Assembly (NCBI GenBank): GCA_964620905.1
Contig: CAZUKA010000002.1
Coordinates: 25,496 to 89,495 of the forward strand
Direction of reading: 5' to 3'
From: an uncultured Gammaproteobacteria bacterium
GTDB taxonomy: Bacteria; Patescibacteriota; Patescibacteriia; S139-126
DNA length: 64,000 nucleotides
Made by a program: the position numbers and the translations under genes. The notes under the pieces are model-generated. The model was given only the letters and a program-made list of their open reading frames with translations, was not told the DNA's origin and made no database searches. The stretch's first letter is position 1; each line of letters begins with the position of its first letter. This document shows, in pieces, positions 11,639 through 59,852 of the stretch.

Positions 11639-11658
11639 CTCTTTTCTTTTCTCTCTTT

Positions 11659-11690
11659 AACCCTTTCATAAAAATGAAAGGGTTTTAATT
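11659..11690 (+). terminator. hairpin/terminator ~25 nt downstream of VR (aaccctttcat-aaaaa-tgaaagggtt + T-rich)
   Basis: 10-bp perfect stem. The position matches the stem-loop commonly found downstream of DGR VRs. Confidence 0.6.
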
Positions 11691-11899
11691 TATGTAAAAA
11701 TATTTTATATTGTTTAAGGCTGTAAAATCGATTTCGCAGATGCGGGATAACGATTTGCCGTTTTTTTTAGACACTGCTTGTCTGTTTTTGATAAAGATGT
11801 ATAAGATACTACTTTATAAAAAAAGTCCGAACTCGCGTCGGTTAACTCAGATAACTTTGTTAAAGGTTGTCGGTGTAAGGGATGAAAACAGGCAAAATA

Positions 11900-12017
11900 A
11901 GGTTCTCGCAATGACGACGACAACGTCCCGAACGTCAACTGGAACGATAGTAAGCTCAAGGTCAACTGGTATAACCCTGACAATCAGAACGACAATCTGC
12001 GTTGTCGTGTAGAAGTG
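11900..12017 (+). repeat. DGR template repeat (TR), non-coding, Asn-codon (AAC) rich
   Basis: Translated in the VR frame it reads RNDDDNVPNVNWNDSKLKVNWYNPDNQNDNLRCRV. 7 AAC codons, 6 of them diversified in the VR. Confidence 0.85.
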
Positions 12018-12023
12018 TCTTTT

Positions 12024-12050
12024 AAACCCGCTCTTTATTGGAGCGGGTTT
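12024..12050 (+). other. GC-rich hairpin immediately 3' of TR (aaacccgctc-tttattg-gagcgggttt)
   Basis: 10-bp stem. It overlaps the stop of the minus-strand Avd-like ORF. Confidence 0.5.
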
Positions 12051-12390
12051 ATTTATAAAGAGATTTTATCCAACCATTAGTCATTTTTGACATTTCTTGC
12101 AAAATGGAGATTAATTCTAGATATTGTTTTTGGGAAATAATTGTTAGTTCTTGGCAAATTCTTAGTAATCGTTTTGTAATTTCAATATTAATTCGTGATT
12201 TTTCTAAAATATTAATCTTGGTTGATTTGTTTGACAGAGCGGCTTCAATCAGTAGAGTAATAATGTTTAAACATATGTTTTCAATTTTAAGAAAAATTCC
12301 CAACTTATCTTTTTTTGCTAGTCTGGATGAAATTTGGTATATTTTTTTATATAATTCAAAACTTCTATGTACCAACGGCACATTTTGCAA
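12049..12390 (-). CDS. Avd-like accessory variability determinant (four-helix-bundle protein, 23S-rRNA-IVS protein family)
   Basis: 113 aa amphipathic helical protein. Pattern (HRSFELYKKIYQIS...IENICLNIITLLIEAALSNKS...LEKSRINIEITKRLLRICQEL...MTNGWIKSLYK) matches the PF05635/TIGR02436 family that includes DGR Avd. It is encoded antiparallel to TR and RT. The start is TTG or GTG; there is no ATG. Confidence 0.65.
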   Translation of the reverse strand: MQNVPLVHRSFELYKKIYQISSRLAKKDKLGIFLKIENICLNIITLLIEAALSNKSTKINILEKSRINIEITKRLLRICQELTIISQKQYLELISILQEMSKMTNGWIKSLYK

Positions 12391-13432
12391 AAACTCGTCG
12401 GGGGGGGGGATTAAAGGACATAATTTATTTGAGCAAATTATTAGTTTAGATAATTTGTTTTGCGCCTGGCGCGAGTTTCAGTGCGGAAAAATGAAAAAAC
12501 CCGATGTGCGTGAGTTTGCTTTTGCTTTGGAAGATAATATTTTTTCCTTGCACGACGAATTAAAAAATAAAACTTACCGACACTCTCATTATACTTCATT
12601 TTATGTATCTGACCCAAAGCTAAGGCATATTCATAAGGCCTGTGTCAGGGACAGGGTATTGCACCATGCGATATTTAGAGTTTTATATCCTGTGTTTGAT
12701 AAGTCATTTATTTTTGATTCTTATTCCTGTCGGTTAAAAAAAGGCACGCACAGGGCAGTTGATAGGTTAGAGAGATTTTGCCTTATGGTCAGTCAGAATA
12801 ATAATTACAACTTTTACTATCTAAAATGTGATATTAAGAAATTTTTTGTTTCGGTTGATCAGGAGATTTTAGTTTGTCTTATCAAGAAAAAAATTGTTGA
12901 TCCAGACGCACTCTGGTTGATACAAGAAATTACTAATAGTTTTCAGACTAGCAATAACAAAGGATTACCGTTGGGTAATGTCACTAGCCAGCTTTTAGCT
13001 AACATTTATTTAAACAAACTTGATCAGTTTATAAAACATCAGCTAAAGGCTAAATATTATCTCAGATATTGCGATGATTTTTTGCTATTATCACCTGATA
13101 AAAATTTATTGGTTGATTATGTCGGGTTGATTGATGATTTTTTACAGAACCATTTAAAACTCAATCTCCATCCTGACAAAATAATCATAAAAAAATACAA
13201 CCAGGGAATTGACTGGTTGGGCTATGTGGTTTTGCCGCATTACCGGCTACTGCGCACCAAAACCAGGCACAGGATTATTGAGCGGATTAAGAATAAACAA
13301 AGAGATTTTAAGTCAGGAGTTGTCAGTCAAGAGCATTTTTGCCAGTCAGTCCAGTCGTATCTGGGAGTGCTTGAGCATTGTTCCGGGTATAAAATAGAGC
13401 GAGAGATGCTGCGCCTTGTGAGTAATGATTAG
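12367..13432 (+). CDS. DGR-type reverse transcriptase (frame interrupted by the G10 tract at 12400-12409 in this assembly)
   Basis: RT motifs: CRLKKGTHRAV (motif 2), YYLKCDIKKFF (motif 3/A), GLPLGNVTSQLLANIY (motif 4 with DGR-specific SQ), RYCDDFLLL (motif 5/C, YxDD), LGYVV (motif 6). The co-linear frame is open from 12104 but its first ATG is at 12491, inside the conserved N-terminal region. The ATG at 12367 is in frame only if the G-run is 9 rather than 10. Confidence 0.85.
12400..12409. repeat. G10 homopolymer at the 5' end of the RT gene / 5' UTR of the Avd-like gene
   Basis: Ten consecutive G in a ~35 % GC genome. It sits 31 nt after the ATG at 12367 and 10 nt upstream of the minus-strand Avd-like start. 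Confidence 0.8.
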
Positions 13433-37674: not shown

Positions 37675-40626
37675 ATGAAAAAAACAATTTTTACACTTTT
37701 GATTTTTGCTTTGGGATTTGGATTAATTCCAAATTATTTTATTTTTAACAAAGTCAGCGTTAATGTAGCTAATGCAGAAGCAAGCTGTCCTACAGTTACT
37801 ATTGACAATTCAACCTATCGCCTAGAACCATGTAACATGAATTTTGAAATGGTTGATGGTGAAGGTAATAAAGATTTCCAAGTAAAAATAGTTCAAGGCG
37901 GTCAATCAACTTTGTATGGTTTTCAGAGATATGGGTATGGCGTAGGATTTCCAACCTATGCGATTTTAGGCGATAGTAGTGGAGGAGTAAACGGAACTGA
38001 TAAAATTTTGTCATTTAGTTTACAAGATAGTGTATTGAACAGTGATGGTAATCAAAATAAAGTATATTCAGGTTATCTACCCATACAAATTTTTCATGGA
38101 TCATGGAATGGGGTATATGAGGAGTTAAAATTAAATTTAACTGTTACAGTCAAACCAGAATCATTTGTTGAACCTTTTGTTTACAATGTGGGTCCGGAGT
38201 GGAAATTTATTTCACCAGTCACCAATTTAATGATAGGCCAACCGATTTTAAACTTTTTTCCAAATTTGGAAAATGTTTATTATTATGATAACGGTTATAA
38301 ACAAGCAAATAATTTTGAAATGGGCAAGGGTTATTGGTTGAAAAATAAAACCAGTCAGACAATTTATGCTACTGGTACACCAATTACTTCCGTAACTTAC
38401 AATCTACCTGCTCAAGGTCAACATCTGATTGGCGCGCCGTTTCTAATGAATTTATCAGATGTACCTTGTGTGATTGATGTGTTGCATTACAACAGTCAAA
38501 CCAATACTTATGATTCAAATTTTGAAATAGCCAAAGGTTCAGCTGCGTTTGTCAAAACAAATGGAAGCTGTAGTTTTACCAAATTAATTGATCGGGTAAA
38601 GGTGGTTATATCAGCACCAACCGTCACTGATATTACTTCAAGTTCTGCTAAAGTTTCCTATAGTATCAGTGGTACCAATAGTACCAATCCGACAATGTGT
38701 TTTGGTACCATTGACTCATCAGTCAATAATTGTTCTGGTATGTCGGTAGTGGCCAAACCAGATGGAACTTTCGAAACTAGTTATAATTTTAGTGGTTTAC
38801 AACCCAATACCAAATATTTTTATCAATTGATTTTGGATAAAAGTACCGGTTTTGAAATCAAAGATAAGGTTTATTCATTTGTTACATCCAATAATTCATC
38901 TTACAATTTGTTTGTAACTTCACCAGTTAAGGGTATAAAGTGGTATTTGGGTGAAAAATATTCAATAAATTGGAAGGCAACTGATGTTCCAGCTGATTAC
39001 ATGGTTGGTATAATGCTCTCAAACAACGGATTGGATAAGGAAATAATAAATTGTTTTGCAAAAATTCCTGTTTCACAAAATTCTTTTGAATGGGTAGTGC
39101 CAAAAGATCAATTGATAGGTGAAAAATATACTATCAAGCTTGGTATTTATAAAGTTGATTCACCTCAAAATGCCTGTGTTGGTCAAGTCCCAATGGTAGA
39201 AAGTGATTATTTTAGTATTTTAAAAGAAAAACCAGTTGTGGGTGATAATAATATTACCTCCCCCTACCTTTTTGCTTTAAATGGCCAAGAAGACAAAGAA
39301 GGAAAAGTAAATTCTGATATTTATGCTAGTTTCAATCGGATGATATTAGGTGGTAGGGTCGGTAAGGGCGTGGAAAAAGTTAAGATCAATTTGATATTAC
39401 CAACAATGGGACCCACCGAAGTCAGTGATGATTGTGAATTGGATTTAATAAAGAATAGTAATACTTGCCAAAGTTTGGAAGCAGTCGGCTTGGTGAATAA
39501 TCAAGCCAACAATCAGGCCGTGTTGAAGATTGATATGAGTAAAAATAATTACGAAAGCCTAAGGTTTGATGTAACTTATAGTTCAGCTGCCAATCCTACT
39601 GACTATACGGTAGATATTGGTGATTCAATTAGTAATGATGGTTGGGGTGGAGATGCTGGTCATCAAACTAACGATGCCGAAGTCCAAATTTACAATACCC
39701 ATCTATCAATTTTTGGTAATGACAATACTGTTGGTGAAAGAAGATTATACAATCTGGGTTATTATGTATCAGCTGGTGATACTGTGAGTATTACAGTTAG
39801 AAATAATTCCGTGCAATGGTCAAAAGTGAAATCGGCTATTGCTGATGTAGTTGTTCCAGATTCTGTATCAGTTGAAAAACCAATCGCCGAGATAAAAGAA
39901 AAAGCCACTTTGCTTTATGAAGGAGAAATTTCTAGCATTTTATCCGAACTCAACACTGTCAGAGACACAGTAAGAGAGCAAGAGATTGAAATCAAATATT
40001 TGAGAGCTTTGATTCAAAACCTTGCTCAGGTAAATGAAAGTATGAAAGAGATGATAAATCATTTTATTACCTACGGTGTTGATACCAATAGTATGAAATT
40101 GGGTGAAGGGGAAAGAGCAGCAGTGGTATATTCCTTTAAGGAAGCCTTTGGCAAATTGCCAGAAAGTGAAGTTGATTTTGAAGATGTGATCAAAATTGCC
40201 AATGGTCGGTGGCCGGAAAAGAAAAGTGATCAAGCTTTAGCTTCTGCCCGAGCAGAATTTGCCAAAATTTATCAGCGTGCCGACAATGCCAACAACCCCA
40301 ATGACCAAGCAGCTGTTACTATCATGGCTTATGGTTTAAGGCAAAAAGCTGAAAATAGAAATTTGTTGAGTGAACAGAACGGTTTGAAAATCTTTGCTGA
40401 ACTTTATGACAAAAATCCACAAACAACCACTGACTGGAATATATTGCAAGCCATCACTTATTCTGGTGCAACTAGAGAAGTGATAGATACTGATAAGGAT
40501 GGTTTGTCAGATGAAATGGAGAAGCGACTAGGTACTGATCCAAAAAATTCTGACACTGACGGCGATAGTTATTTGGATGGGCAAGAAGTAGTCCATGGTT
40601 ATAACCCCCTGCAAAAAGCTCAATAA
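37675..40626 (+). CDS. large secreted surface protein (983 aa) with FN3-like segment and C-terminal thrombospondin-3-like Ca-binding repeat
   Basis: Signal peptide. DTDKDGLSDEMEKRLGTDPKNSDTDGDSYLDGQEVVHGYNPL at the C-terminus. FN3-like ITSSSAKVSYSISG region. Confidence 0.55.
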   Translation: MKKTIFTLLIFALGFGLIPNYFIFNKVSVNVANAEASCPTVTIDNSTYRLEPCNMNFEMVDGEGNKDFQVKIVQGGQSTLYGFQRYGYGVGFPTYAILGDSSGGVNGTDKILSFSLQDSVLNSDGNQNKVYSGYLPIQIFHGSWNGVYEELKLNLTVTVKPESFVEPFVYNVGPEWKFISPVTNLMIGQPILNFFPNLENVYYYDNGYKQANNFEMGKGYWLKNKTSQTIYATGTPITSVTYNLPAQGQHLIGAPFLMNLSDVPCVIDVLHYNSQTNTYDSNFEIAKGSAAFVKTNGSCSFTKLIDRVKVVISAPTVTDITSSSAKVSYSISGTNSTNPTMCFGTIDSSVNNCSGMSVVAKPDGTFETSYNFSGLQPNTKYFYQLILDKSTGFEIKDKVYSFVTSNNSSYNLFVTSPVKGIKWYLGEKYSINWKATDVPADYMVGIMLSNNGLDKEIINCFAKIPVSQNSFEWVVPKDQLIGEKYTIKLGIYKVDSPQNACVGQVPMVESDYFSILKEKPVVGDNNITSPYLFALNGQEDKEGKVNSDIYASFNRMILGGRVGKGVEKVKINLILPTMGPTEVSDDCELDLIKNSNTCQSLEAVGLVNNQANNQAVLKIDMSKNNYESLRFDVTYSSAANPTDYTVDIGDSISNDGWGGDAGHQTNDAEVQIYNTHLSIFGNDNTVGERRLYNLGYYVSAGDTVSITVRNNSVQWSKVKSAIADVVVPDSVSVEKPIAEIKEKATLLYEGEISSILSELNTVRDTVREQEIEIKYLRALIQNLAQVNESMKEMINHFITYGVDTNSMKLGEGERAAVVYSFKEAFGKLPESEVDFEDVIKIANGRWPEKKSDQALASARAEFAKIYQRADNANNPNDQAAVTIMAYGLRQKAENRNLLSEQNGLKIFAELYDKNPQTTTDWNILQAITYSGATREVIDTDKDGLSDEMEKRLGTDPKNSDTDGDSYLDGQEVVHGYNPLQKAQ

Positions 40627-41818: not shown

Positions 41819-42547
41819 TTGCTAGATAAAAATTCAAACATCATGAATTTAAAAAGTGATTTACCAAAAAAACCCAGTGTCTTTAATAAGATAGATTTTA
41901 AAAAAATTGGCACCGGCGCACATTTTACTGAAGGAAAGTTTAATTCCACCAGAGGTCTCGGTCTCAAGGGACAATTGGGAAATCTTAAACGCAGCGCCAG
42001 ATTTACTGCCACCGCAAATTTGTCAAAGAAAAATTTGCAAACCATGTATGATCTAATCAATGAAAGATTGAAAAATAAAGCGGTAAATTCCAAGGTAGGT
42101 ATTTCCGCTAGAGATAAAAAGATGATAATGTCAGCTGCTTATAAGCTCACCAAGCAACATGAATCAAATTTTTCTCGAGAAGACATGGAGGATTTAAGGA
42201 AGGTAGTAGATGAGTTGAAAATTGCAAGTGAAGAAAATATTTTATCAAAAAAAGAAAATAGTAGTCAAAGTGTTATTTCGCAAATAGATAAAAACAATTT
42301 TACAATTGAAAATAAAAAAAATCTTGCCACTGGCCAAGGTGCTATTCCCAATAGATCAGTTGAACTTAGCACCAATTTATCTGCGGAATTTTTATCCAAA
42401 GCAAACACTGATCAGCCTGCTTTGAAAGAAAATCCAAAAAATATTACTGATGAGCCAATAGTTTTTGAAAATATCAATCGTAAAAAGATTGATCAAGATC
42501 AGGATAAAATTCCCAGTCCGTCAGAAGCAAAAGATTTGCCAATTTAA
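41819..42547 (+). CDS. hypothetical low-complexity protein (242 aa)
   Basis: ORF only; the start could be the internal Met at 41843. Confidence 0.4.
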   Translation: MLDKNSNIMNLKSDLPKKPSVFNKIDFKKIGTGAHFTEGKFNSTRGLGLKGQLGNLKRSARFTATANLSKKNLQTMYDLINERLKNKAVNSKVGISARDKKMIMSAAYKLTKQHESNFSREDMEDLRKVVDELKIASEENILSKKENSSQSVISQIDKNNFTIENKKNLATGQGAIPNRSVELSTNLSAEFLSKANTDQPALKENPKNITDEPIVFENINRKKIDQDQDKIPSPSEAKDLPI

Positions 42548-48080: not shown

Positions 48081-48390
48081 ATTATTCTATTTATATTAAA
48101 TATACAAAATATCTTTGGAATATTAAGATTGTTTGAAAAAAATTTATAGGTAAGACATAAATTTAAAATATAAACTACTCCATATTCGGAGCGTTTTTTT
48201 CTTATCTAAACAAACTGTCAAATTTTGTAAAATAATGAGGTGCTTAAGTGAATTACATTAAAACTAAGGTGATTTTTGGCTTTGTTAATGAAGTTGAATT
48301 ATAACCAATTAGTATTGACTTTTTCCTAAAAATTTGCTATTATTTAATGTTTAGTAATAATTAACAATCAAAAAATTACTGGAGAAAAAA

Positions 48391-48928: not shown

Positions 48929-48963
48929 TTACTAAATTTATTTTATTTTAAGTTGTTAGTTTT

Positions 48964-49100
48964 AAAACCACTCCTCTCGGAGCGGTTTTTTCTATGTCAA
49001 AATATGTAAAATGGGGTCCCACCAGGTGCGATTTTGGAACCCCTTGATTGAGGAGTTGAAGTTGTGGATGGAGGGGTTGGAGATGGTGGTTTAGATTAGA
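48964..49100 (+). repeat. terminator + conserved block module, copy (tRNA-His-proximal repeat family)
   Basis: aaaaccactcctctcggagcggttttttctatgtcaaaatatgtaaaatggggtcccaccaggtgcgattttggaaccccttgattgaggagttgaagttgtgg... Confidence 0.8.
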
Positions 49101-49157: not shown

Positions 49158-49400
49158 CTAATCTGTATCAGCTTTTATGCATCCACCAATAACTATACCG
49201 ATTCCAGCAATTGCCGCTACAATAAAAAGAGGTGATTGATGCCCCTCTAATGGCAAAAATACTTGTACAATTGATGCAAATCCACAAACACTTATTATTG
49301 CCCCAGTAAACCTAGGAAGAATTTTTGCTAATATGATAAGTACCAGACCAATTATTTGTAGACCCGCACAGATGATTGATAAAGTTTCCAAGTTAAACAT
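49158..49400 (-). CDS. small 3-TM membrane protein (80 aa)
   Basis: ORF on the minus strand inside the repeat-delimited array. Confidence 0.4.
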   Translation of the reverse strand: MFNLETLSIICAGLQIIGLVLIILAKILPRFTGAIISVCGFASIVQVFLPLEGHQSPLFIVAAIAGIGIVIGGCIKADTD

Positions 49401-49477: not shown

Positions 49478-49630
49478 TAAAACCGCTCCTTTCGGAGCGG
49501 TTTTTTCTATGTAAAAATATGTAAAATGGGGTGGCACCAGGTGCGATTTTGGAATCCCTTGATTGAGGAGTTGAAGTTGTGGGTAAGTGGTATTAGAGAT
49601 TGCTGTTTAGGTAGGATTTTGGTAGAATTA
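49478..49630 (+). repeat. terminator + conserved block + extended -10 (TGGTAGAAT) module, copy
   Basis: Near-identical to the 48964-49100 and 56382-56532 copies. ATG of the downstream gene is 6 nt after TAGAAT. Confidence 0.8.
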
Positions 49631-49634
49631 AAGT

Positions 49635-50003
49635 ATGAATGAATATATAATGCCATCAGAATTTTCTAATTTTTTTAAGCCAACTAAACGTAAAGTACTA
49701 GTATCTTTACTAATACCGTTTATAATATTAGGACTGCCTTTATTATTTTTAGTAATCAGAGCCTTTTTGTGTTTTAACTGGAATGGTTATAATTGTTCAG
49801 GTGCCACAGATGCAATATTTGAGATTCTTTCATATCCTTTCTTATTATTATTTATTGTACCATTAGAAAAACTAGAATTATTTTTTTCACCAAAAACATT
49901 TAGTGGCGAAGTTATATTATTTATAAGTTTAATTATTTTTTATTTATTTTTGAGTTATCTTTTTGTTTCATTTTATTATCATAAAAGGAATAAAAATATT
50001 TAA
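49635..50003 (+). CDS. membrane protein (122 aa)
   Basis: ORF immediately downstream of a module promoter; 3 TM helices. Confidence 0.45.
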   Translation: MNEYIMPSEFSNFFKPTKRKVLVSLLIPFIILGLPLLFLVIRAFLCFNWNGYNCSGATDAIFEILSYPFLLLFIVPLEKLELFFSPKTFSGEVILFISLIIFYLFLSYLFVSFYYHKRNKNI

Positions 50004-50025
50004 ATTTTTATATAATAAATAAAAA

Positions 50026-50170
50026 TTGCCCCCTCTCGGAGCGGTTTTTTCTTATCTAAATCTACTGTCAAATTATGTAAAATGGGGTGCCTTCGTAGAC
50101 GCTATTAGAACTAAGATTATTTATAGTTTTGAGGAAGAGATGGCTCAATAGGTAAGTTTTTGGTAGAATT
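50026..50170 (+). repeat. repeat module, variant copy
   Basis: ccccctctcggagcggttttttcttatctaaatctactgtcaaattatgtaaaatggggtgcc ... tttttggtagaatt. Confidence 0.75.
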
Positions 50171-50175
50171 AGTAT

Positions 50176-50802
50176 ATGATTAGATTTTTCAGTAAAATAT
50201 TTTTACCATTTAAAGTGGCTGGCGGATATGCAATAGTATTAACATTATTTGTTGTTGGAGTTTCAGCATTTGTTTATTCTGGTGGATTTCTAGATTTGCC
50301 CTTAATTTTTATTTTTTTACCACCATTTCCGGCAATAATTACACTTCCAATTACAATTGTAATATGTTGGTTTATTGCATCATTATTAATTAAATTACAA
50401 AGAAAAATATTACCAAATAAAGAACGTTTATTTACCTATTCAATTATCATAATTCTAGTTTTAATTATATTTATATTTTCTGTTCCTGTTTATGCAACAC
50501 GTATAATTAAAATAATTCCAACCTCTCAGATTTGTTGGATTGCGGATAACTGGGATAATTGGGCGCCTAGTAATAAATACGAAGGTACTAAATGTTATAC
50601 TGCGTTAGCAATTAAAAAAAACGATTTAGATCTATGTGGTGATCTTAATTATGAATTCTTGAGAGAGGGATGTTATGTACAGATGGCAATTTTTAATAAT
50701 GATATCACTATTTGTGAAAAGTATATTCATAAAGTTCCTAATTATATATATCCCGATACTAATATTAATGATTGTAAAAAAAGAGTTCAACGAGGAAAAT
50801 AA
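50176..50802 (+). CDS. membrane protein with Cys-rich C-terminal domain (208 aa)
   Basis: Multi-TM N-terminal half; C-terminus with 8 Cys (CWIADNW...CYTALA...CGDLNYEFLREGCYVQ...CEKY...CKK). Confidence 0.45.
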   Translation: MIRFFSKIFLPFKVAGGYAIVLTLFVVGVSAFVYSGGFLDLPLIFIFLPPFPAIITLPITIVICWFIASLLIKLQRKILPNKERLFTYSIIIILVLIIFIFSVPVYATRIIKIIPTSQICWIADNWDNWAPSNKYEGTKCYTALAIKKNDLDLCGDLNYEFLREGCYVQMAIFNNDITICEKYIHKVPNYIYPDTNINDCKKRVQRGK

Positions 50803-50819: not shown

Positions 50820-50900
50820 CAAACCGCCCCCTCTCGGAGCGGTTTTTTCTTATCTAAATCTACTGTCAAATTTTGTAAAATGGGGTCGCTTGGGAACTTA
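50820..50900 (+). repeat. repeat module, partial copy (terminator + proximal block)
   Basis: aaaccgccccctctcggagcggttttttcttatctaaatctactgtcaaattttgtaaaatggggtcgc. Confidence 0.75.
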
Positions 50901-51048
50901 AGTTATAACTTTAAAATGATTAGTGATATATCACACCCCTAATGAATTTAAAATGGTTAAAATAAATTTTTGTATAAATACTATGCCAGGCAAGAATATA
51001 AATTACCGATCTAAGATTGTTTGATGCCCCTATATTTTTTATTTGCAA

Positions 51049-54000
51049 TTATTTTTTAAACCAAGGGGAATGGGTATAACCTTCTTTACCCGACCAGAGG
51101 TAGAGAGTGGGAATATCGGAATAAAGTTCTTGATGAATATCGCTTGAATAAGTCCAAAAAATAATATTTTTAAATTCTTTTTTAAGAGCTTCGGATTCAA
51201 TTTTTCTCATCACATAATATCTCTTGGCTTCATTTTTATAATCCTTAAATCCTCTATGTTTGGCTGATTTTTCTAGCTCGGCACTGTTTTTTAAATCTCG
51301 CCACTCTCTTTCTGTTAATAATTTAAGATTATTTTTTATTATAATGTCAGATAATTTTTGTCTTTTCCATAGTTCACTTAAATATTTACTGGTATATCCA
51401 GCTTTTTTAATAAGTTTTTTTATTTCTTTTAGATATTGTTCATAAGTATTTTTATTATACTTATTCAACCTTGCATGTTCGTTAGCTAAAATAAAAATAA
51501 AATTAAGACCCGGCTTATAAATGTTTTTAATTTGATTATTTAACTGTTGAAATTTTTTTAATGCCGCTAAGTCTTTTTCGTCTATTTTTAATTTATCAGA
51601 TGCTCCCCAGAAACCAACTAAATCAATCGGTTTATTTTTTAAAACAAACTGATTGATTGCAAAGGCGATCTCGTCCTCCTTATAGGGGACATCTCTTGAA
51701 ATATTTCTTTGATTGAATAATTTTAAAATTTCATCAGCTATAGATGGTTTAATAAATTGTGGCAAACTCGCCCTCATTAACCAAGGATAGATTTTATACC
51801 ACGCTTGTCTAGCATTTTCTATACCCGCACTATTGATTTTTAATTTTTTATCCCAAAATTTTATTAATTCATTAAACATAACATCATGATTTAGCATAGT
51901 TGGAAATTCATTTGTAAAATATTTCAAAGCCTTAATTTTGTTTTTCTTTATAAAATTTATTGTTTCTTTTAAAGCCGAAACAAAAGATATGATTGCGGGT
52001 TGAAATTTTGGATCAAGATTATCGCAGATTGTAATACCTGTAAATAAATAATCTCTAAAATAATCTTCAAAAGAATAAACAATATGTCCCCCGCGACCAA
52101 CTAAGTCTAATGCATAATCTACAGTCATAATACCAATATCCACCTTTCTTTCTTTTAATGCCTTAACTAAGGCATTAGATTTAATAGGAATAAATTTTTT
52201 ATTGGGTAATATTTTTTTAGCAAGTGTATTGGTTGTTGAAAATTCTTGATAGGTACCAATTTTGTAATTATAAAAATCATCTAATTTTTTAATTTTTATA
52301 TTTGGGTCTAATGTAACTGCGACCACGGGAACACGACCGATTAATTGTCCAACAATTTTTCCTTTGGTTTTAAAATTTGAAGCAAAAGAAAAAACTGGAT
52401 CAGCGATACCTATTTGAGCAGAGCCTGACATTAAGGAATTATAAGTTAAATCATCGCCCCCCGAAGAAATAAAATCTATATCTAGTTTGTGTTTTTTATA
52501 ATAACCTAATTTGGCTGCTAAGTAGGCCGGAAAATAAAGGGGCATTCTTGAAAATTCAGCCACCAACATTCTGTATTCTCCCGGCTTATCATCGATAGTA
52601 CTTAATGTTTCTTTAGTGATTATTCGATGATAATTTTTATGTAGTTTATTAAATTTAAGATTTTTGTACTTGTTGAAATAAACTAATTCTTCTTCGGTTA
52701 AAAAACCATATCTCTGTTTAGTTGGATAATCTAGTTTACCTTTATTTTCTGATAATACTGCCTTGGCCACATCGCCATCTTGTGTTCTAAAATTAAAACC
52801 AACATTCATACCTGCACCATTGGAAAATGGAACTTTGTAACGCCAGGCAATATAATCGGGCAAGAATTCTTCGGCTACCTTTCTTAAAATATATTTAGTA
52901 GTAACTTGATGATTTTCTCTTTTAATTTTTAGACTACCATCAATTTGTAGGGCAAATTCTGCGACTTTGGTATCAAAAAATGGAGCTCGAGTTTCCAATG
53001 TATGTTTCATAGACATTCTATCCACGCGCATATTATGGCTTCGTTCCAAATCATTAGTGATTAGATAGCAACCCTTATTTACATGTTCATCACTTAATCT
53101 TGAAAACTCATTATAGCCCCCAAATAGTTCATCTGCTGCTTCACCAACTAATGCTATACGATAACCAGCTCGAACCACTTCTTTTGAAAGGATGTCTAGC
53201 GCAAAAGATTGTCTTATAACTTGAGCCTCATACATTTCTAGATGATAGATTAAGTTTTCAAATTCTTTTGCATAATCAACATTCGGATAAACAATATGAT
53301 ATTTATAATTATTGTCTTTGCATAACTTTAAAGAAGCTTCATAATCAGAAGAGCCTGGGAAGCCAAGTATAAAGGCAGTTACGTTTTTATGAAATCTTGT
53401 AGCTATCTCCATTATAAGACTACTGTCAACACCACCGCTTAATAAAACTGCGATTGGCAAATCAGTATCAACTCTTTTTTTTACTGCTTCGACCATTAAT
53501 TCAGTTAATTTTGTTTTTGCAAAATCTAAATCTTTAATTTTGTTGTTGTAATTTATTTTGTGATAAGCTTTTATTCTCCCATTATACATATAACATCCTT
53601 TGGGGAAAATTTTTACTTCTTTTATAAAATCGAATTGTACTAGCTGTTTTATTTCCGAACCAAAATAAAAGTTTTTATTTTTATCTCTAGCATAAAATAA
53701 AGGTTTTACACCAAAACGATCTCTAGCTACAAAAAAATTATTTTTCTTAGTATCATAAATTACAAAGGCATACATTTCCGAATCAATTTTTTCGATCATT
53801 TTTTCTCCGTACTCCTCATACAAATGTGCTAATACTTCCGTGTCACAATCCGTTTTGAATTTATGCTTCTTTTTTTCTAATTGAGATCGTAATTCTTTAT
53901 AATTAAATATTTCACCGTTTTGGGCAGCAAAAATAGTACCATCTTCATTAGATAGCGGTTGATGACCAGTATCACGACCAACAATTGGTAAGCGATTGGC

Positions 54001-54132
54001 TCCTAAGGCACCTTTCTCAAAAACTCTTAATTCATAAAAATTAGTACCTCGATGTTTAATCTTACTTAAAGAATCTCTCATGAATAATTCTTTTTTTTGG
54101 TAATTGCCGAAAACAGCTGTAATTCCACACAT
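51049..54132 (-). CDS. asparagine-synthetase (glutamine-hydrolysing) homologue fused to an NMT1/SsuA-like periplasmic-binding-fold domain and a ~280-aa C-terminal domain of unknown function (1027 aa)
   Basis: Ntn amidotransferase MCGITAVFG, PP-loop SGGVDSS, AsnB C-domain. Residues ~520-760 resemble NMT1/THI5/SsuA binding proteins. The C-terminal third has no recognisable family. Confidence 0.75.
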   Translation of the reverse strand: MCGITAVFGNYQKKELFMRDSLSKIKHRGTNFYELRVFEKGALGANRLPIVGRDTGHQPLSNEDGTIFAAQNGEIFNYKELRSQLEKKKHKFKTDCDTEVLAHLYEEYGEKMIEKIDSEMYAFVIYDTKKNNFFVARDRFGVKPLFYARDKNKNFYFGSEIKQLVQFDFIKEVKIFPKGCYMYNGRIKAYHKINYNNKIKDLDFAKTKLTELMVEAVKKRVDTDLPIAVLLSGGVDSSLIMEIATRFHKNVTAFILGFPGSSDYEASLKLCKDNNYKYHIVYPNVDYAKEFENLIYHLEMYEAQVIRQSFALDILSKEVVRAGYRIALVGEAADELFGGYNEFSRLSDEHVNKGCYLITNDLERSHNMRVDRMSMKHTLETRAPFFDTKVAEFALQIDGSLKIKRENHQVTTKYILRKVAEEFLPDYIAWRYKVPFSNGAGMNVGFNFRTQDGDVAKAVLSENKGKLDYPTKQRYGFLTEEELVYFNKYKNLKFNKLHKNYHRIITKETLSTIDDKPGEYRMLVAEFSRMPLYFPAYLAAKLGYYKKHKLDIDFISSGGDDLTYNSLMSGSAQIGIADPVFSFASNFKTKGKIVGQLIGRVPVVAVTLDPNIKIKKLDDFYNYKIGTYQEFSTTNTLAKKILPNKKFIPIKSNALVKALKERKVDIGIMTVDYALDLVGRGGHIVYSFEDYFRDYLFTGITICDNLDPKFQPAIISFVSALKETINFIKKNKIKALKYFTNEFPTMLNHDVMFNELIKFWDKKLKINSAGIENARQAWYKIYPWLMRASLPQFIKPSIADEILKLFNQRNISRDVPYKEDEIAFAINQFVLKNKPIDLVGFWGASDKLKIDEKDLAALKKFQQLNNQIKNIYKPGLNFIFILANEHARLNKYNKNTYEQYLKEIKKLIKKAGYTSKYLSELWKRQKLSDIIIKNNLKLLTEREWRDLKNSAELEKSAKHRGFKDYKNEAKRYYVMRKIESEALKKEFKNIIFWTYSSDIHQELYSDIPTLYLWSGKEGYTHSPWFKK

Positions 54133-54222
54133 AAATTATGATTTTAATAAATAATTTATTTTGTAAAAAATAAAATTTTAAAAGAGTTATATAAATATTT
54201 TTTAATAGTCTAATTATATCAC

Positions 54223-54375
54223 AAAACCGCCCCATCTCGGAGCGGTTTTTTTAATGTTATAAATCGGCCTGAATGGCTGTGCCATCTGAAGCTTTAGCGT
54301 AGGATGGGGTGGCACCAGGTGCTATTTTTGAACCCCTTGATTGAGGAGTTAAAGTTGTGGGTGGAGTCAATGGTA
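54223..54375 (+). repeat. repeat module copy (upstream of the AsnB-fusion start)
   Basis: aaaaccgccccatctcggagcggttttttt ... ggatggggtggcaccaggtgctatttttgaaccccttgattgaggagttaaagttgtgggtggag. Confidence 0.75.
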
Positions 54376-54518
54376 ACGTGTTAATATTGACTTTTTCGTA
54401 AAAATATGCTACAATTCAATATTCTAAATCGTACATACACAATAAAAAATAAGCCATCGAGAGGATGGCGATGTTCAAAAAACATTGACACGAGAAGTGT
54501 CAGAAAGGATTCAACATC

Positions 54519-54920
54519 GTGAAGGCAAAACAAATTATAACAGCTTTACAGTTCGCAGCCAGCGAACTTGTCATCGAACTCTGTTCAGATTTACGCCTCG
54601 TATTCCGAGAGAATGCACCATTACCAAGGCAGGGTTTAAATTTGAAAATATTATACAGAGCAAACGCTAGTGTACTAAAAGATGGATTTCCTGAATTAGG
54701 ACTTACTCACTACTCTAACGCATATCTGTTCCAAGTCGAAATAGAAGTTGTAGGATGGGAAAAGAAAAATAAACTACGTTGTTGGTTTGCTAAAAGCCAA
54801 ACGCAAGAGCATCCAGGCTGGTGGCCTCTTAAAGGGGAATTGAATTATAATCGTACAAAAATTGAATTTCATTGCCGTGCCAAAGAAAATAATGCAATAG
54901 AAATTTTTGAACATCGATAG
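54519..54920 (+). CDS. hypothetical protein (133 aa), locally GC-elevated
   Basis: ORF preceded by the palindrome TGACAC-N5-GTGTCA (54485-54501), which overlaps a TTGACA box. Confidence 0.4.
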   Translation: MKAKQIITALQFAASELVIELCSDLRLVFRENAPLPRQGLNLKILYRANASVLKDGFPELGLTHYSNAYLFQVEIEVVGWEKKNKLRCWFAKSQTQEHPGWWPLKGELNYNRTKIEFHCRAKENNAIEIFEHR

Positions 54921-54952
54921 CCCAAAGAACAAACGTTAATTTCGTTTCCTAT

Positions 54953-54980
54953 AAAACCGCTCCTCATCTGAGCGGTTTTT
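54953..54980 (+). terminator. family terminator hairpin (aaaaccgctcctcatctgagcggttttt)
   Basis: Same hairpin family as the module terminators. Confidence 0.7.
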
Positions 54981-55063
54981 AAATTTATATTTTTTAATTC
55001 AATTGGGGTCAATTCAAAATCACCAAACCTGGCAAACCAAGTTTTTTAGCTTATATAAAACAA

Positions 55064-55196
55064 AAGCACCTCCTCGGTAGAGGAGATGTTCTTATGGGGT
55101 GGCACCAGGTGCGATTTTGGAACTCTTTGATTGAGGAATTGAAAAAGTGGGTGGAGGGGTTAGAGATGGTTGTTTAGGTAGGATTTTGGTAGAATT
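55064..55196 (+). repeat. repeat module conserved block + extended -10, copy
   Basis: ttatggggtggcaccaggtgcgattttggaactctttgattgaggaattgaaaaagtgggtggaggggttagagatggttgtttaggtaggattttggtagaatt. Confidence 0.8.
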
Positions 55197-55212: not shown

Positions 55213-55917
55213 TTGACTATGTCTAAAAGGTATTATCCAAATATTAAGTTTAGTGTTAGTTTAGCGAGAGAAAAAAAGATTTTTTTAGAGAGAAAAAGAA
55301 ATTTGCAAAAGTTTTTGCCCGCAGAAATAAGTTTTGTTACAAATAGAAAATACGCAAGTTATAGAAATGAATTATTATCCTCTTATTTGGATGTTTATTA
55401 TTCAGATAAGAAAAAGTTTTTAATAGAAAGTGTTAGAAATACAAAAAGTAAATGGCAGAAAGTAGAGAAAAAATTTTTTATAAAAGTTGATAAGATTTTT
55501 AATAATTGGCCTTGGCCTAAAGGTAATTATAGGGGGTATGTTTCTATTGCCCATTCTTTTCCTCGCAACATAAAGGATAAGACTTTTTCTTTTCCAGTAA
55601 AAGATTATATACCAGGACGAGAGAACAATGATATACGTGTGATAGCACACGAGATGCTTCATTTTATAGAATATGATTATTTACAGAAAAAATTTGGATT
55701 GAAAGCAAGTGAACACGATTCATTTGATAATACCTTTTGGCAATTTACCGAAAATTTAAATGTATTAATTCAAAATACTAGTTTTTGGAAAGAATTTAGT
55801 ACAGGTGTTAAATCAAAGCCATATGACGATTGTAAAAAAATGTATAATAAGATGAAAAGCATATGGGATAGAGATAAGAGTATTGATAGACTAGTTGATA
55901 AAATTTTTTATAGTTAA
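55213..55917 (+). CDS. hypothetical protein with HExxH zinc-metallopeptidase-like motif (234 aa)
   Basis: VIAHEMLHFIEYDY. No signal peptide. Driven by a module promoter. Confidence 0.45.
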   Translation: MTMSKRYYPNIKFSVSLAREKKIFLERKRNLQKFLPAEISFVTNRKYASYRNELLSSYLDVYYSDKKKFLIESVRNTKSKWQKVEKKFFIKVDKIFNNWPWPKGNYRGYVSIAHSFPRNIKDKTFSFPVKDYIPGRENNDIRVIAHEMLHFIEYDYLQKKFGLKASEHDSFDNTFWQFTENLNVLIQNTSFWKEFSTGVKSKPYDDCKKMYNKMKSIWDRDKSIDRLVDKIFYS

Positions 55918-55926
55918 TCAATTACA

Positions 55927-55955
55927 AAAGTCGCCCCATCTTGGAGCGGTTTTTC
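55927..55955 (+). terminator. family terminator hairpin (tcgccccatcttggagcggttttt)
   Basis: Same hairpin family. Confidence 0.65.
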
Positions 55956-56079
55956 TAACTTGACTATTCTATATAAGGGTTATAGGATAGTATGTTAGTT
56001 CATTAAAAAAATGTAAATAAAACCATCAAAAAATAAATAATTATTATAAACAAATTCAAAGAAAGATTAGGGTATTTAT

Positions 56080-56367
56080 ATGTCAGAACTTCATAATATT
56101 CAAGTCAAAATGGTTAAAGAAAACAAACCAGATTTAACTTTAGATGATTTGGAAATTTTTCACGCAGATTGTGGAGGAGGTAAAATTTCAAATAAAAATC
56201 TTCTAGGTGGTAAAAATTTAAAATGCACGAGATGTCTTGAAGAAGTGTATTTTTCATACAGTGAAATAGGAACAATATATAAAACCGCCCTTACGGGTGA
56301 AAAGCTGGAACTTGTGTGTTACAGAATAAATGGTAATAGATCCCATTTTATAGAAGTTCTTAATTAA
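56080..56367 (+). CDS. small zinc-ribbon protein (95 aa)
   Basis: CGGG...CTRC and a second C pair. Confidence 0.4.
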   Translation: MSELHNIQVKMVKENKPDLTLDDLEIFHADCGGGKISNKNLLGGKNLKCTRCLEEVYFSYSEIGTIYKTALTGEKLELVCYRINGNRSHFIEVLN

Positions 56368-56381
56368 TAAATTGTTTAATT

Positions 56382-56532
56382 AAACCGCCCCATCTCGGAG
56401 CGGTTTTTTCTTTGTCAAAATATGTAAAAATGGGGTGGCACCAGGTGCGATTTTGGAACCCCTTGATTGAGGAGCTAAAGTTGTGGGTGGAGGGGTTAGA
56501 GGTGGTTGTTTAGGTGAGCATTTGGTAGAATA
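56382..56532 (+). repeat. repeat module copy (terminator + conserved block + TGGTAGAAT)
   Basis: ttaaaccgccccatctcggagcggttttttctttgtcaaaatatgtaaaaatggggtggcaccaggtgcgattttggaaccccttgattgaggagctaaagttgtgggtggaggggttagaggtggttgtttaggtgagcatttggtagaat. Confidence 0.8.
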
Positions 56533-56556
56533 TAGGTAATATTAAACATAAATTCT

Positions 56557-57396
56557 ATGAGTAAGTCATTAAAAATTATTGTCCCTGTAATATTGGTATT
56601 AGTAGTAGGTGGTGCTGTGGCAGGATATTTGTATTGGCAAAATATAAACCCTGATGTTATAGAGGAACCACTGCCCCAACAACAAGTTAAAAGTGATGAT
56701 AAACAAGTACAAAATAATGAGACTGACAGTACAACCAATACAAATATAGACCGAATTAATTATTTAAAAGAAAATGTTCCTACTGAGATTTTAAATTATA
56801 ATTCTGATAAAGATAATAATGATTCAGATTTAGATGGTTTACCAGACAATCTCGAAGATATCTTAGGGACCAACCATAATAAATCAGATTCTGATGATGA
56901 TGGTTTTAATGATATAGATGAATTAAAAGCCGGCTATAATCCGCTTGGTAATGGAACGATTTTTGATTCAACAGATGATAAAATTAAGAGTAATGGATTG
57001 TGGTATTTTATTAGATATCAGCAATCAAATGATGCACAGCGTTTTAGTAATATTAGTACAATACGTACAGCTCTAGATTTATATTATAAAGATTATGGTG
57101 TTTACCCATCTGCAGAAGGTGAAATTATTCTTGGAAAAGATGTAAAAAGTTTAACAAAGTCAGGTTGGGGTAATGAGGTAGGTAGCGGAATGAATTATAT
57201 GAACTTAGTGTATGATAATACTTCTCCTGGTGGTATTCCTTTTACATATTGCACCACTGATAATAATGATATAGAGAAGTGTTCTAAATCCATTTCTTCT
57301 TATATAATAAAATTTAAACTTGAGATTGGAGTTCAAACAGATTTTGGAGTTTTAGGTCCAGGATTGCACATCGCTACACCAAATGGTTTTCAATAA
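56557..57396 (+). CDS. membrane-anchored protein with thrombospondin-3-like Ca-binding segment and C-terminal pseudopilin/type-IV-pilin-like globular domain
   Basis: N-terminus MSKSLKIIVPVILVLVVGGAVAGYLYWQ (family signal-anchor). DSDLDGLPDNLEDILGTNHNKSDSDDDGFNDIDELKAGYNPL. The segment QRFSNISTIRTALDLYYKDYGVYPS matches the GspG/pilin alpha-beta loop motif. No canonical G-FTLIE prepilin N-terminus. Confidence 0.5.
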   Translation: MSKSLKIIVPVILVLVVGGAVAGYLYWQNINPDVIEEPLPQQQVKSDDKQVQNNETDSTTNTNIDRINYLKENVPTEILNYNSDKDNNDSDLDGLPDNLEDILGTNHNKSDSDDDGFNDIDELKAGYNPLGNGTIFDSTDDKIKSNGLWYFIRYQQSNDAQRFSNISTIRTALDLYYKDYGVYPSAEGEIILGKDVKSLTKSGWGNEVGSGMNYMNLVYDNTSPGGIPFTYCTTDNNDIEKCSKSISSYIIKFKLEIGVQTDFGVLGPGLHIATPNGFQ

Positions 57397-57426
57397 ATAT
57401 ATTTTAATAGTGTTTATTCTATTTAC

Positions 57427-57475
57427 AAAACCGCCCCCTCTCGGAGCGGTTTTTTCTATGTCAAAATATGTAAAA
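57427..57475 (+). repeat. terminal repeat-module copy (terminator + proximal block) abutting the tRNA-His 3' end
   Basis: ccgccccctctcggagcggttttttctatgtcaaaatatgtaaaa, followed directly by tggggtggc, which is the 3' end of tRNA-His. Confidence 0.8.
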
Positions 57476-57550
57476 TGGGGTGGCTAGAGGGAGTCGAACC
57501 CTCGCCAGCGGGACCACAACCCGCTGTTCTACCGTTAAACTATAGCCACC
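57476..57550 (-). tRNA. tRNA-His (anticodon GTG), encoded CCA, G-1:C73
   Basis: Reverse complement folds as G(-1)GTGGCTA acceptor, anticodon stem GCGGG/CCCGC with loop TTGTGGT, T-arm GGGTTCGACTCCC, 3' TAGCCAC-C-CCA. Confidence 0.85.
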
Positions 57551-57585
57551 ATGATAGGTTAGTATAAAGTAAAAAGTCGCAAGTA

Positions 57586-58850: not shown

Positions 58851-58880
58851 GAATTAGGAATTAAGAATTAGGAATTAAGG
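58851..58880. repeat. 4 tandem copies of an 8-mer (gaattagg/gaattaag); an inverted partial copy lies at 58703-58722 on the other side of tRNA-Arg
   Basis: gaattaggaattaagaattaggaattaagg vs cttaattcgtaattctaatta. Confidence 0.6.
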
Positions 58881-59852
58881 TTTTTTTCTATGATGGAAAT
58901 TTTTGTGAATTTCTTTGAGTTGGCGATTGGTAATGTGCGTATAAATTTGGGTAGTAGTGATAGAAGCGTGTCCGAGCATAGCCTGCACTGATCTGATATC
59001 AGCCCCGTTTTGCAAAAGATCAGTGGCAAAGGAATGTCGGAGTGTATGAGGGGTGACTTTTTTGGTGATACCAGCAGCTTTACTATAAAATTTAATAAGT
59101 CTTTCCACGCTTCTTGGTGTCAGAGCGTGGACAACTTTATTATCCTTTTTCAATCTTTTATTTTTGGCTCGATCGTGTCCGACAAAAAGCGATGGATCAA
59201 CATCTTGTCTCTTGTCCAGGTAAGTTCGCAGGGAATTTTTGGCATTGTCAGACAAAAAGACCAAACGATTTTTACCGCCTTTACCTGTTACGGTAAATTC
59301 GTCTTTTTTTAAATTGATTTGTTCACGGGTTAGATTGGTGAGTTCAGACACGCGCAGTCCGGTTGAAAAAAGCATTTCCAAAATCGCTTTATCGCGATAA
59401 CGAATGATTTCATTTTGTTCCAATTTTATTGGCGCATTGAGTAGTCTCTCCAAATCATCACCTTCGAGGAAGTCAACTTCTCTTTCTGGTTGTTTTGCCA
59501 GTTCAATCTTTTCTGACGCTAGTGTCTTAATGTCTTGCTTGGCTAGATATTTTAAAAAAGTTCGCAATGCGATAAGATGATAGTTTTGAGTTGATTTTTT
59601 CAACGGTTTTCCTTGTTTGTCGGTTTGACGATTGAGCCAAAGACGAAACTGTTTTATTTTGTGTAAAGTTATATCAGCTGGTTTAAGGTTTTTTTTACCC
59701 AACCAGGAAAAAAATCTCAATAAATAAAAACTATAATTTCTAATTGTGCGTAATGACCGTCCCTTTTCAATTTCCAAATAGTTTAAAAAATCTTTGGCCC
59801 ACCGACCCAAAGAATTAAAACTGTCCAGTTTTTTGATAGCGTTGTCTGACAT
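58875..59852 (-). CDS. tyrosine site-specific recombinase, XerC/XerD-like
   Basis: N-terminal SAM-like core-binding domain; catalytic R...HTLRHSFAT...LGHASITTTQIYTH with Tyr. Confidence 0.8.
   Translation of the reverse strand: MSDNAIKKLDSFNSLGRWAKDFLNYLEIEKGRSLRTIRNYSFYLLRFFSWLGKKNLKPADITLHKIKQFRLWLNRQTDKQGKPLKKSTQNYHLIALRTFLKYLAKQDIKTLASEKIELAKQPEREVDFLEGDDLERLLNAPIKLEQNEIIRYRDKAILEMLFSTGLRVSELTNLTREQINLKKDEFTVTGKGGKNRLVFLSDNAKNSLRTYLDKRQDVDPSLFVGHDRAKNKRLKKDNKVVHALTPRSVERLIKFYSKAAGITKKVTPHTLRHSFATDLLQNGADIRSVQAMLGHASITTTQIYTHITNRQLKEIHKNFHHRKKP

Follow-up and report, generated by a model that had tools for sequence, protein, structure and literature searches.

Some subfamilies of integrases are known to target tRNA genes at their asymmetric 3' end, the third 'sublocation' of Williams (2002). 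Integrase-less cis-mobilizable elements (CIMEs) accrete in tandem with ICEs or IMEs (Pavlovic 2004; Bellanger 2011; reviewed in PMC5704250). The array described here lies beside the tRNA-His gene of a 64-kb stretch of DNA (the window), the closest named relative of which is Candidatus Paceibacter (locus L004). It resembles the tRNA-targeted islands and prophages of tyrosine integrases in that the extreme 3' end of the tRNA gene appears to be the target, insertion restores the tRNA gene, and its 3' fragment recurs as a short direct repeat at the far end of the inserted DNA. The repeat was present with 9 bp at the cassette boundaries, as a pair of GCCACCCCA copies in the related locus L003 and with 14 bp in locus L034. 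Differently occupied or empty sites were found as well, namely in L004 as compared with L003, in L065 to L067, and in L034 as compared with L040. Unlike these islands, which measure 5 to 100 kb, the array consists of at least eight single-gene units of 0.5 to 3.4 kb in tandem, carries no integrase inside or adjoining the inserted DNA, and has a repeat that is no longer than 9 bp, apart from one of 14 bp.

With CIME accretion the array shares integrase-less, att-bounded units that lie head to tail at one att site and would be served by a recombinase in trans. CIMEs are decayed ICEs or IMEs beside a functional element, whereas the array shows neither such an element nor a remnant module, and its units share promoter and terminator arms and look purpose-built. 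No domains pointing to a derivation from an ICE or IME were found in the Pfam scans of the window or in the Pfam listing of L064.

A fixed insertion point and co-oriented, mostly single-gene orphan cassettes, the content of which varies among relatives, are features that the array has in common with chromosomal integrons. It differs from them by the lack of an IntI (the neighbouring recombinase scored 133.8 bits with the integron-integrase model, the cutoff of which is 265), by junctions without an attC-like single-strand fold, by cassettes that possess their own predicted promoter and terminator instead of depending on Pc, and by its anchor, which is the end of a tRNA gene. In the way it works the array is similar to integrons and to CIME arrays, yet defining features of both are missing from it.

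Small integrase-less modules that are moved by recombinases of the host, and that may form tandem arrays, are represented by IMEX (CTX and TLC at dif) and by the pdif modules of Acinetobacter. The cassettes are comparable to these modules in being small and integrase-less and in having short recombination sites, but the sites of IMEX and pdif modules are 28-bp dif mimics that have XerC/XerD arms and lie at dif or on plasmids. The site of the array is the 3' end of a tRNA gene, and no dif-like palindrome of the 11-6-11 type extends across its core. The genomes of Patescibacteria are very small, and classical mobile elements are regarded as rare in them. The locus is a tRNA-His-anchored array of self-expressing cassettes which are joined through the 9-bp core and would be mobilized in trans, and its platform has been conserved in five or more lineages of a Paceibacter-like clade.

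Position of the core at the 3' end of tRNA-His

The features of the locus are compiled in Table 1. The 9-mer TGGGGTGGC that was identified as the core consists of the CCA end, the discriminator C and five acceptor-stem bases of tRNA-His. According to the original prediction, the homology between the module copies extends into this 9-mer and stops there, and this was borne out by the alignment, with 81 to 90% identity on the left of the core as against 15 to 19% on its right. The 52 nt to the left of the tRNA core, comprising the terminator hairpin and the spacer CTATGTCAAAATATGTAAAA, were identical in 42 to 45 positions to the copies at 49527 and 49012 (81 to 87%), and an identity of about 90% was obtained with the copy at 56431 if an indel of 1 nt was allowed. 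Of the 52 nt to the right of the tRNA core, only 8 to 10 (15 to 19%) were identical to the internal copies. After the core, the internal copies continue with ACCAGGTGCGATTTTGGAAC and the tRNA with TAGAGGGAGTCGAACCC.

Table 1. Coordinates of the array, its junctions and the adjoining genes in the window
Feature	Position	Strand	Remarks
tRNA-His(GTG), encoded G-1 and CCA	57476-57549	minus	ARAGORN; Rfam tRNA 67 bits
9-bp core TGGGGTGGC	57476-57484	+	homology to internal copies stops at both edges of the 9-mer
Left module LA at tRNA	57427-57475	+	profile match 71.6 bits
tRNA-proximal cassette gene, 279 aa	56557-57396	+	N-terminal transmembrane segment; TSP3-like Asp-rich repeats
Junction: terminator, LA, core (56431-56439), R1 (56440-56491), promoter-like TGGTAGAAT ending at 56531	56381-56531	+	
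Two-gene cassette	55213-56367	+	234-aa HExxH protein with weak DUF5700 match; 95-aa Cys-rich protein
Junction: terminator, second hairpin (LD, ...CACCTCCTCGGTAGAGGAGATGTTCTTA), core (55095-55103), R1, TGGTAGAAT promoter	54953-55195	+	
Junction: terminator, LC (...GCCATCTGAAGCTTTAGCGTAGGA), core (54305-54313), minimal R1 (52 nt)	54223-54415	+	
Inverted-gene cassette	50881-54222	minus	delimited by arm R5 and the core variant TGGGGTCGC (50881-50889)
Junction: terminator, spacer LB (CTTATCTAAATCTACTGTCAAATTATGTAAAA), core variant TGGGGTGCC (50083-50091), R4, TGGTAGAAT promoter	50022-50169	+	
Junction: terminator, LA, core (49527-49535), R1, promoter	49478-49628	+	
Junction: terminator, LA, core variant TGGGGTCCC (49012-49020), R1 without promoter	48963-49095	+	
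Degenerate distal junction: spacer LB with a decayed terminator; TAATGAGGTGC replaces the core	48172-48243	+	28 bits
Xer-family tyrosine recombinase	58875-59852	minus	sole recombinase detected in the window; 1.3 kb from the array; syntenic in all sister loci

The exact core occurs five times in the window (at 49527, 54305, 55095, 56431 and 57476), the expected number being 0.2, and five copies were reached in none of 100 shuffles of the window, which has a G+C content of about 33%. Three variants of the form TGGGGT[CC/GC/CG]C were also present: TGGGGTCCC at 49012, TGGGGTGCC at 50083 and TGGGGTCGC at 50881. Every copy of the core in the window has the same orientation, and all are located between 48.1 and 57.5 kb. 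Searches of the 64-kb window with an nhmmer profile and with patterns detected full modules in the same region only, and in the related loci modules occurred only beside tRNA-His. A dispersed repeat of the MITE, REP or BOX type was rejected on account of this localization; terminal inverted repeats and target-site duplications of the MITE type were not seen when the sequence was judged by eye. The tRNA-His gene anchors the array in the chromosome and corresponds to attB or attI, and the core at its 3' end is the putative crossover site.

On the plus strand the 9-mer is exactly complementary to the 3' end of tRNA-His, and its internal copies could also be elements that act at the RNA level, such as primer-binding sites of a reverse transcriptase, tRNA-sensing leaders or parts of a pseudo-tRNA or small RNA. 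Primer-binding sites of retroelements start with TGG, as does the core, and a reverse transcriptase is encoded in the window at 12104-13432. This enzyme, however, is part of a diversity-generating retroelement of the usual kind, which has a template and variable repeats of its own. The core is located between an upstream terminator and a downstream promoter-like element and would therefore not be expected in the cassette mRNA. In the region from 47.5 to 58.9 kb no Rfam family other than the tRNAs reached the threshold. The possibility that the right arm contains a pseudo-tRNA or half of a tRNA was rejected, as no T-arm pairing was found and ARAGORN and Rfam gave only two real tRNAs. A structured RNA or attC-like fold at the junction was rejected as well, because three strands folded no better than shuffled sequences (z = +1.2, +1.4 and -0.01); the only hairpin at the junction was the intrinsic terminator, 20 to 35 nt from the core. 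The presence of the LA flank on the tRNA gene itself would also be left unexplained, and a function at the RNA level is considered highly improbable.

Structure of the array junctions

Each unit begins with the core, which is followed by a 5' arm, one or two ORFs, and a terminator hairpin with a spacer (LA or LB), after which the next core follows. The 5' arm is usually R1 (ACCAGGTGCGATTTTGGAACCCCTTGATTGAGGAGTTGAAGTTGTGGGTGGAG) and often runs on to a conserved extended -10 element, TGGTAGAAT. At the tRNA, LA is composed of a bidirectional terminator hairpin, AAAACCGCCCCCTCTCGGAGCGGTTTTTT (57427-57455), and a 20-nt spacer (57456-57475), which holds a tandem 10-nt TATGTMAAA repeat. The junction at 54305 has a different promoter, TTGACT-17-TACAAT at 54387-54415, and the cassette gene that follows the junction at 49012 is inverted (49158-49400, minus strand, 80 aa). 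As the core-proximal 52 nt of R1 were retained even with an inverted cassette gene or another promoter, this part of the arm appears to be more than a promoter. Alternatively, the conserved arms could be kept for transcription (promoter, terminator, phased A-tracts) and not for recombination. R1, R2 and R4 were each found upstream of unrelated genes, and a simple model of a gene plus its own site does not explain the combination of shared arms with differing genes.

In the original prediction the internal copies shared the left flank together with the 9-mer. This applied to the LA copies, but at 54305 and 55095 the 9-mer and the right arm are present and the 'ttttttctatgtcaaaatatgtaaaa' flank is missing. 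Three junctions with core variants (49012, 50083 and 50881) and a degenerate one at 48233 were found in addition. The description of the copies as attR-type remnants was refined: they are attP-like hybrids between cassettes, in which the 3' end of one is joined to the 5' arm of the next. The cassettes are complete promoter-gene-terminator units.

A small ORF starting from an ATG at the junction (MGWHQVRFWNPLIEELKLW...) was considered and rejected, as the copy in the related locus L040 contains frameshifts, a Shine-Dalgarno sequence is lacking and the promoter is located downstream.

Related loci and reassortment of the flanks

Five further lineages of the Paceibacter-like clade yielded the same locus. 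L003 (84% identity), L004 (75%, Candidatus Paceibacter) and L005 were obtained through the flanking CbiM protein, and L064, L065, L066 and L067 through homologues of the Xer-like protein. A search of metagenomes with the DNA pattern of R1 gave L033, L034, L040 and L042, which are real, while the other nine of the 13 loci with this pattern were chance matches in a marine coding gene.

The tRNA side was conserved across the related loci and comprised rpsO, pnp, Xer, tRNA-Arg, usually cbiM-PDGLE, and tRNA-His; the side of tRNA-His away from Xer varied. In L004 tRNA-His is followed by the spacer LB and a terminator, which border immediately on gene X, encoding a conserved surface protein. The tRNA-His of L003 is succeeded by another terminator and by a two-gene segment of 5.36 kb between two copies of GCCACCCCA, the second of which precedes the spacer LA, a terminator and a homologue of gene X (X'). 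The homologue of gene X in the window (37675-40626) is located 17 kb from the tRNA. L034 contains a GC-rich insert of about 200 nt at the tRNA, bracketed by the 14-nt repeat TGGGGTGGCTACTG. L064 has a cassette set of its own, with cores at 12285, about 14010, 14640, 15509 and 18408. In the more distant loci L065 to L067, the Xer proteins of which are 75 to 77% identical, a plain terminator follows tRNA-His and modules are missing. The expected variation of the cassettes at tRNA-His in sister genomes was thus found, both between L004 and L003 and between L034 and L040.

About 30 junctions from the window and from L003, L004, L033, L034, L040/L042 and L064 were tabulated. The alignment of more copies had been set beforehand as a test of the predicted boundary, and in all of the tabulated junctions the homology boundary stayed at TGGGGTGGC, which was usually preceded by A. 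At least six unrelated types of left flank were distinguished: LA, LB, LC (...GCCATCYGAAGCTTTAGCGTAGGA), LD (with the hairpin CACCTCCTC), and LE and LF, which are other terminators. The right flanks were of six types, namely the tRNA body, R1, R2 (AATTCGTGGAATATGGCAAAC), the GC-rich R3, R4 and R5. LA was joined to the tRNA, R1 and R2, and LB to the tRNA, R1, R3, R4 and R5. LC, which occurs in the window at 54305, was joined to R1 and R2 also in L040 and L034, LD was joined to R1 in the window (55095) and instead to R2 in L064, and LE and LF were joined to the tRNA. Of the right arms in the window, R4 was also present in L033, before another gene, and R5 in L064; the CCC allele of R1 at junction 49012 was found in L033 and L064.

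The combinations LD-core-R1 (window, 55095), LD-core-R2 (L064, 14640), LA-core-R1 and LA-core-R2 have only the core of 9 to 10 bp in common. A shared sequence of this length is too short for an exchange of the RecA type, and since the same 9-mer was reused, a site-specific reaction is suggested. The core is also shorter than the typical k-mer of an assembler (Logan assembles at k = 31); each junction must therefore have been read through, and assembly artefacts cannot account for the junctions.

The strongest single datum was provided by L034 and L040, both of which originate from metagenome Ga0172369. Positions 1 to 166 of L034 are 99.4% identical to L040 through the upstream cassette, LA, LC and TGGGGTGGCA. 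Past TGGGGTGGCA, L034 continues with R2 and L040 with R1, and unrelated cassettes follow.

In principle this difference could also have arisen by a double crossover in the shared flanks. A dedicated site would then not be required: a terminator-promoter module of about 190 bp would have been amplified locally by tandem duplication, unequal crossing-over or gene conversion, with allelic replacement through flanking homology, and the overlap of 9 nt would stem from a founding copy that was the downstream flank of the tRNA. The modules do hold a terminator and the promoter-like TGGTAGAAT, and the N-termini of some array proteins (family D9) are paralogous. Homologous exchange, however, predicts switch points anywhere in the shared arms of 50 to 100 nt. 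Instead, the unrelated flanks LC, LD, LE and LF and the unrelated right sides (tRNA, R2, R3 and R5) share only the core of 9 to 10 nt, and this repeatedly and in several lineages. Most of the cassette genes have no kinship to each other, and the 14-nt repeat around the 200-nt insert of L034 resembles the result of an insertion. Local amplification is therefore regarded as an improbable origin of the array.

Proposed mechanism of cassette insertion

The array is probably the product of site-specific recombination that took place again and again at the 3' end of tRNA-His, with the 9-bp core as crossover site. Serial insertion at this site had been predicted originally, and the reassortment at the core and the cassette polymorphism support it. 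The evidence for recombination is comparative and comes from MAG and metagenome assemblies.

According to this model, small circularizable cassettes would be inserted one by one beside tRNA-His via the core TGGGGTGGC. A cassette would comprise the core, a 5' arm (R1 to R5), usually one gene, and a 3' arm consisting of a terminator plus spacer (LA, LB, LC, LD or others). Recombination of a circular Li-core-Ri with L0-core-tRNA would yield L0-core-Ri...gene...Li-core-tRNA. Integration would thus restore the tRNA, place the newest cassette next to it and leave the 9-bp repeat at each boundary. In the window, L004 and L064, most exact cores were found close to the tRNA, while variant and decayed cores occupied distal positions, and this gradient fits insertion at the tRNA end. 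The recombinase would act in trans; inverted binding sites of the simple Cre/Xer type flanking the core were not seen on reading the sequence by eye. The outcome would be an integron-like hypervariable array containing mostly orphan genes for membrane and surface proteins. The circular form of the intermediates, the order in which the cassettes were inserted, the kind of recombinase and the role of the array in the cell are inferences.

It is possible, and proposed here only tentatively, that the locus represents a previously undescribed gene-capture platform of Patescibacteria of the Paceibacter-like clade and an analogue of integrons. In such a platform the part of attI would be taken by the 3' end of tRNA-His, the cassettes would be self-expressing promoter-gene-terminator units equipped with conserved bipartite arms, a recombinase encoded elsewhere (conceivably the single housekeeping Xer of the cell) would excise and insert them via the 9-bp core, and the surface and membrane proteome of these episymbionts would be diversified. 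If true, this would be a second, independently evolved answer to the problem solved by integrons. The locus-specific collecting and swapping of single genes at a tRNA would be a compact way of varying surface and membrane proteins, and such variation bears on the attachment to hosts and on the pressure from phages. The short defined core, the conserved arms and the natural variants make the system directly testable. The 9-bp core could also help to delimit hypervariable regions in MAGs, as short-read assemblies break inside the repeated modules.

Search for the recombinase

The Xer-like protein was 63 to 70% identical to the listed homologues that are named for other lineages of Patescibacteria. 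It matched best the XerD, XerC and XerA models. Its scores were below the equivalog cutoffs of XerD and XerC and just above the cutoff of the archaeal XerA model ('site-specific tyrosine recombinase/integron integrase'). Because of this identity across lineages, and because array-less relatives also carry Xer next to tRNA-His, the gene looks like a phylum-wide housekeeping gene of the chromosome-resolution type.

Caution regarding the responsible integrase had already been expressed in the original prediction, and it was justified insofar as no other recombinase was detected in the window or the scanned sister loci. Motif scans for tyrosine and serine recombinases in the window, L003, L004 and L034 revealed none but Xer and, among serine recombinases, no canonical motif, and tblastn with the Xer protein against the window, L003, L004, L034, L005, L033, L040 and L042 revealed no second recombinase; both tests are of low sensitivity. 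The ORFs at 1 to 40 kb of the window were checked for recombinases by eye, and those of L003 and L004 were inspected and scanned for recombinase motifs. Pfam scans of the cassette ORFs of the window gave no recombinase, phage, conjugation or replication domain. The Pfam gene listing of L064 contained no integrase in the cassettes and no phage, conjugation or replication domain.

A donor phage or plasmid was sought in IMG/VR with the R1 arm, the GC-rich R3 insert and the spacer plus core. These scans gave no module-bearing match, and the 21 matches obtained with the spacer plus core were chance matches without module context. Blastn against phage and plasmid collections yielded no module-bearing element.

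The housekeeping Xer at a distance of 1.3 kb might itself drive the array in the manner of IMEX and pdif modules, in which case the junction would be a dif mimic. No other recombinase was detected in the window, its synteny with tRNA-Arg and tRNA-His is kept wherever an array is present, and it is transcribed divergently from the cassettes, as is intI in integrons. Furthermore, the spacer sequence ATATGTAAAAT matches 9 of the 11 positions of TTATGTTAAAT, the XerD arm of E. coli. This dif-like Xer site was nevertheless rejected, as it is misoriented with respect to the core and missing from the LC, LD, LE and LF junctions, which have recombined at the core all the same. The absence of an 11-6-11 palindrome across the core, the occurrence of the protein throughout the phylum and its presence beside tRNA-His in array-less relatives also argue against this possibility, and Xer is judged improbable as the driving enzyme.

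Cassette genes and their expression

The ORFs of the cassettes encode mostly small membrane or secreted proteins without a Pfam match, and the genes are mostly unrelated to one another. Genes for membrane proteins of 122 aa (49635-50003) and 208 aa (50176-50802) are located downstream of the junctions at 49527 and 50083, respectively. The inverted gene at 51049-54132 encodes a protein of 1027 aa in which an AsnB-like glutamine amidotransferase/asparagine synthase is fused to an NMT1-like domain. The two-gene cassette possesses an internal terminator at 55927-55955.

Most cassettes contain TGGTAGAAT (extended -10) or the TTGACT-17-TACAAT element, and a terminator closes each of them. The promoter calls are sequence predictions based on the conservation of TGGTAGAAT across the cassettes; in a scan with consensus promoters, sites were no commoner than in shuffled sequence.

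Some of the cargo looks foreign, such as the T9SS-tail proteins of L003 and L064 and the GC-rich insert of L034. This would agree with a tandem accretion of integrase-bearing elements (prophages, ICEs or IMEs) at tRNA-His which decayed, with loss of the integrase and of most genes, and are now CIME-like remnants between att repeats. Integrase-less att-flanked arrays at the 3' ends of tRNA genes are documented, and the 3'-end sublocation is already known. Each of the at least eight units of 0.5 to 3.4 kb is, however, a tidy succession of promoter, gene and terminator. No integrase gene was present in the arrays of the window, L003, L004, L034 and L064, and the called genes and Pfam scans were free of phage, conjugation and replication domains. 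In addition, R1, LA and LB are near-identical over cassettes and lineages, so that the same precise decay would have been needed many times. An origin by accretion is considered unlikely.

The N-termini that were found to be paralogous (family D9) belong to only some of the array proteins. The cassette of the 279-aa gene next to the tRNA was recovered as a separate contig of 1022 bp in the short-read assembly.

Cassette cargo

Large surface proteins with a C-terminal T9SS-type (Por_Secre_tail) sorting domain are encoded by cassettes in two of the arrays, those at the related tRNA-His loci L003 and L064 (see table). This domain is characteristic of Bacteroidota and would not be expected in Patescibacteria, and its presence in cassettes of both loci suggests that the arrays take up foreign genes. 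The L003 record is labelled 'uncultured Gammaproteobacteria', whereas the locus is syntenic with Paceibacter.

The stretch at window 54387-54930, part of one cassette, starts with a predicted strong promoter of consensus type (TTGACT-17-TACAAT, TG upstream), which is followed by two hairpins (54453-54502) and then by a putative, relatively GC-rich ORF of 133 aa with a GTG start. No family match was obtained for this ORF, and the product of the cassette could be either a protein or an RNA.

An orphan gene of 242 aa (window 41819-42547) lies outside the recognisable array, and no modules occur near it. Its product shares 59% identity (tblastx) with that of a gene at 1536-2009 of L040, a related metagenomic locus, where the gene sits within a module-flanked cassette. 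Because of this homologue, the region from 40.6 to 48.1 kb of the window may hold older cassettes, the junctions of which have decayed.

Junctions and assembly

The spacers beside the core consist of tandem units of about 10-11 nt (TNTGTMAAAW), two in left type LA and three in LB, as seen at window 57456-57475 and in the other LA and LB spacers. Together with the T-run of the terminator, these units place A/T tracts at intervals of about one helical turn immediately beside the core. The phased tracts could represent intrinsic bending or putative arm-type protein-binding sites. For the source sample, SRR10807626, the breaks in the short-read assembly (Logan) fall within the repeated modules; short-read MAGs will systematically fragment or lose such arrays.

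At the metagenomic locus L034 a GC-rich insert of about 200 nt with many hairpins (1442-1640) was found, which is also present in L042 and at the end of L040. In L034 it is bracketed by the 14-nt direct repeat TGGGGTGGCTACTG at the 3' end of tRNA-His, and its base composition is unlike that of the host (about 33% G+C). The insert contains no ORF, had no credible match in Rfam and matched no viral contigs. Possible identities are a small RNA gene or the remaining stub of an element of foreign origin. In place of the cbiM-PDGLE genes, a small ORF resembling GIY-YIG-type nucleases stands between tRNA-Arg and tRNA-His of the same locus (1800-2110, minus strand); it was assigned by eye from MYYVYILQS...LYTGYTANLKRRFSEHN.

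Diversity-generating retroelement

The window also carries a complete diversity-generating retroelement (DGR; 10925-13432). All 15 mismatches between its variable and template repeats are at template adenines.

Positions of cassette genes, DGR components and Logan contigs
Feature	Sequence	Position	Remark
T9SS-tail cassette gene	L003	11198-15646	
T9SS-tail cassette gene	L064	18513-19964	
DGR target gene	window	10925-11638	
DGR variable repeat	window	11515-11632	inside target gene
DGR template repeat	window	11900-12017	87% identity to variable repeat
DGR reverse transcriptase	window	12104-13432	YCDD motif
End of Logan contig L001	window	~57466	contig ends in spacer following tRNA-His
Logan contig L002	window	56445-57466	one cassette as separate 1022-bp contig
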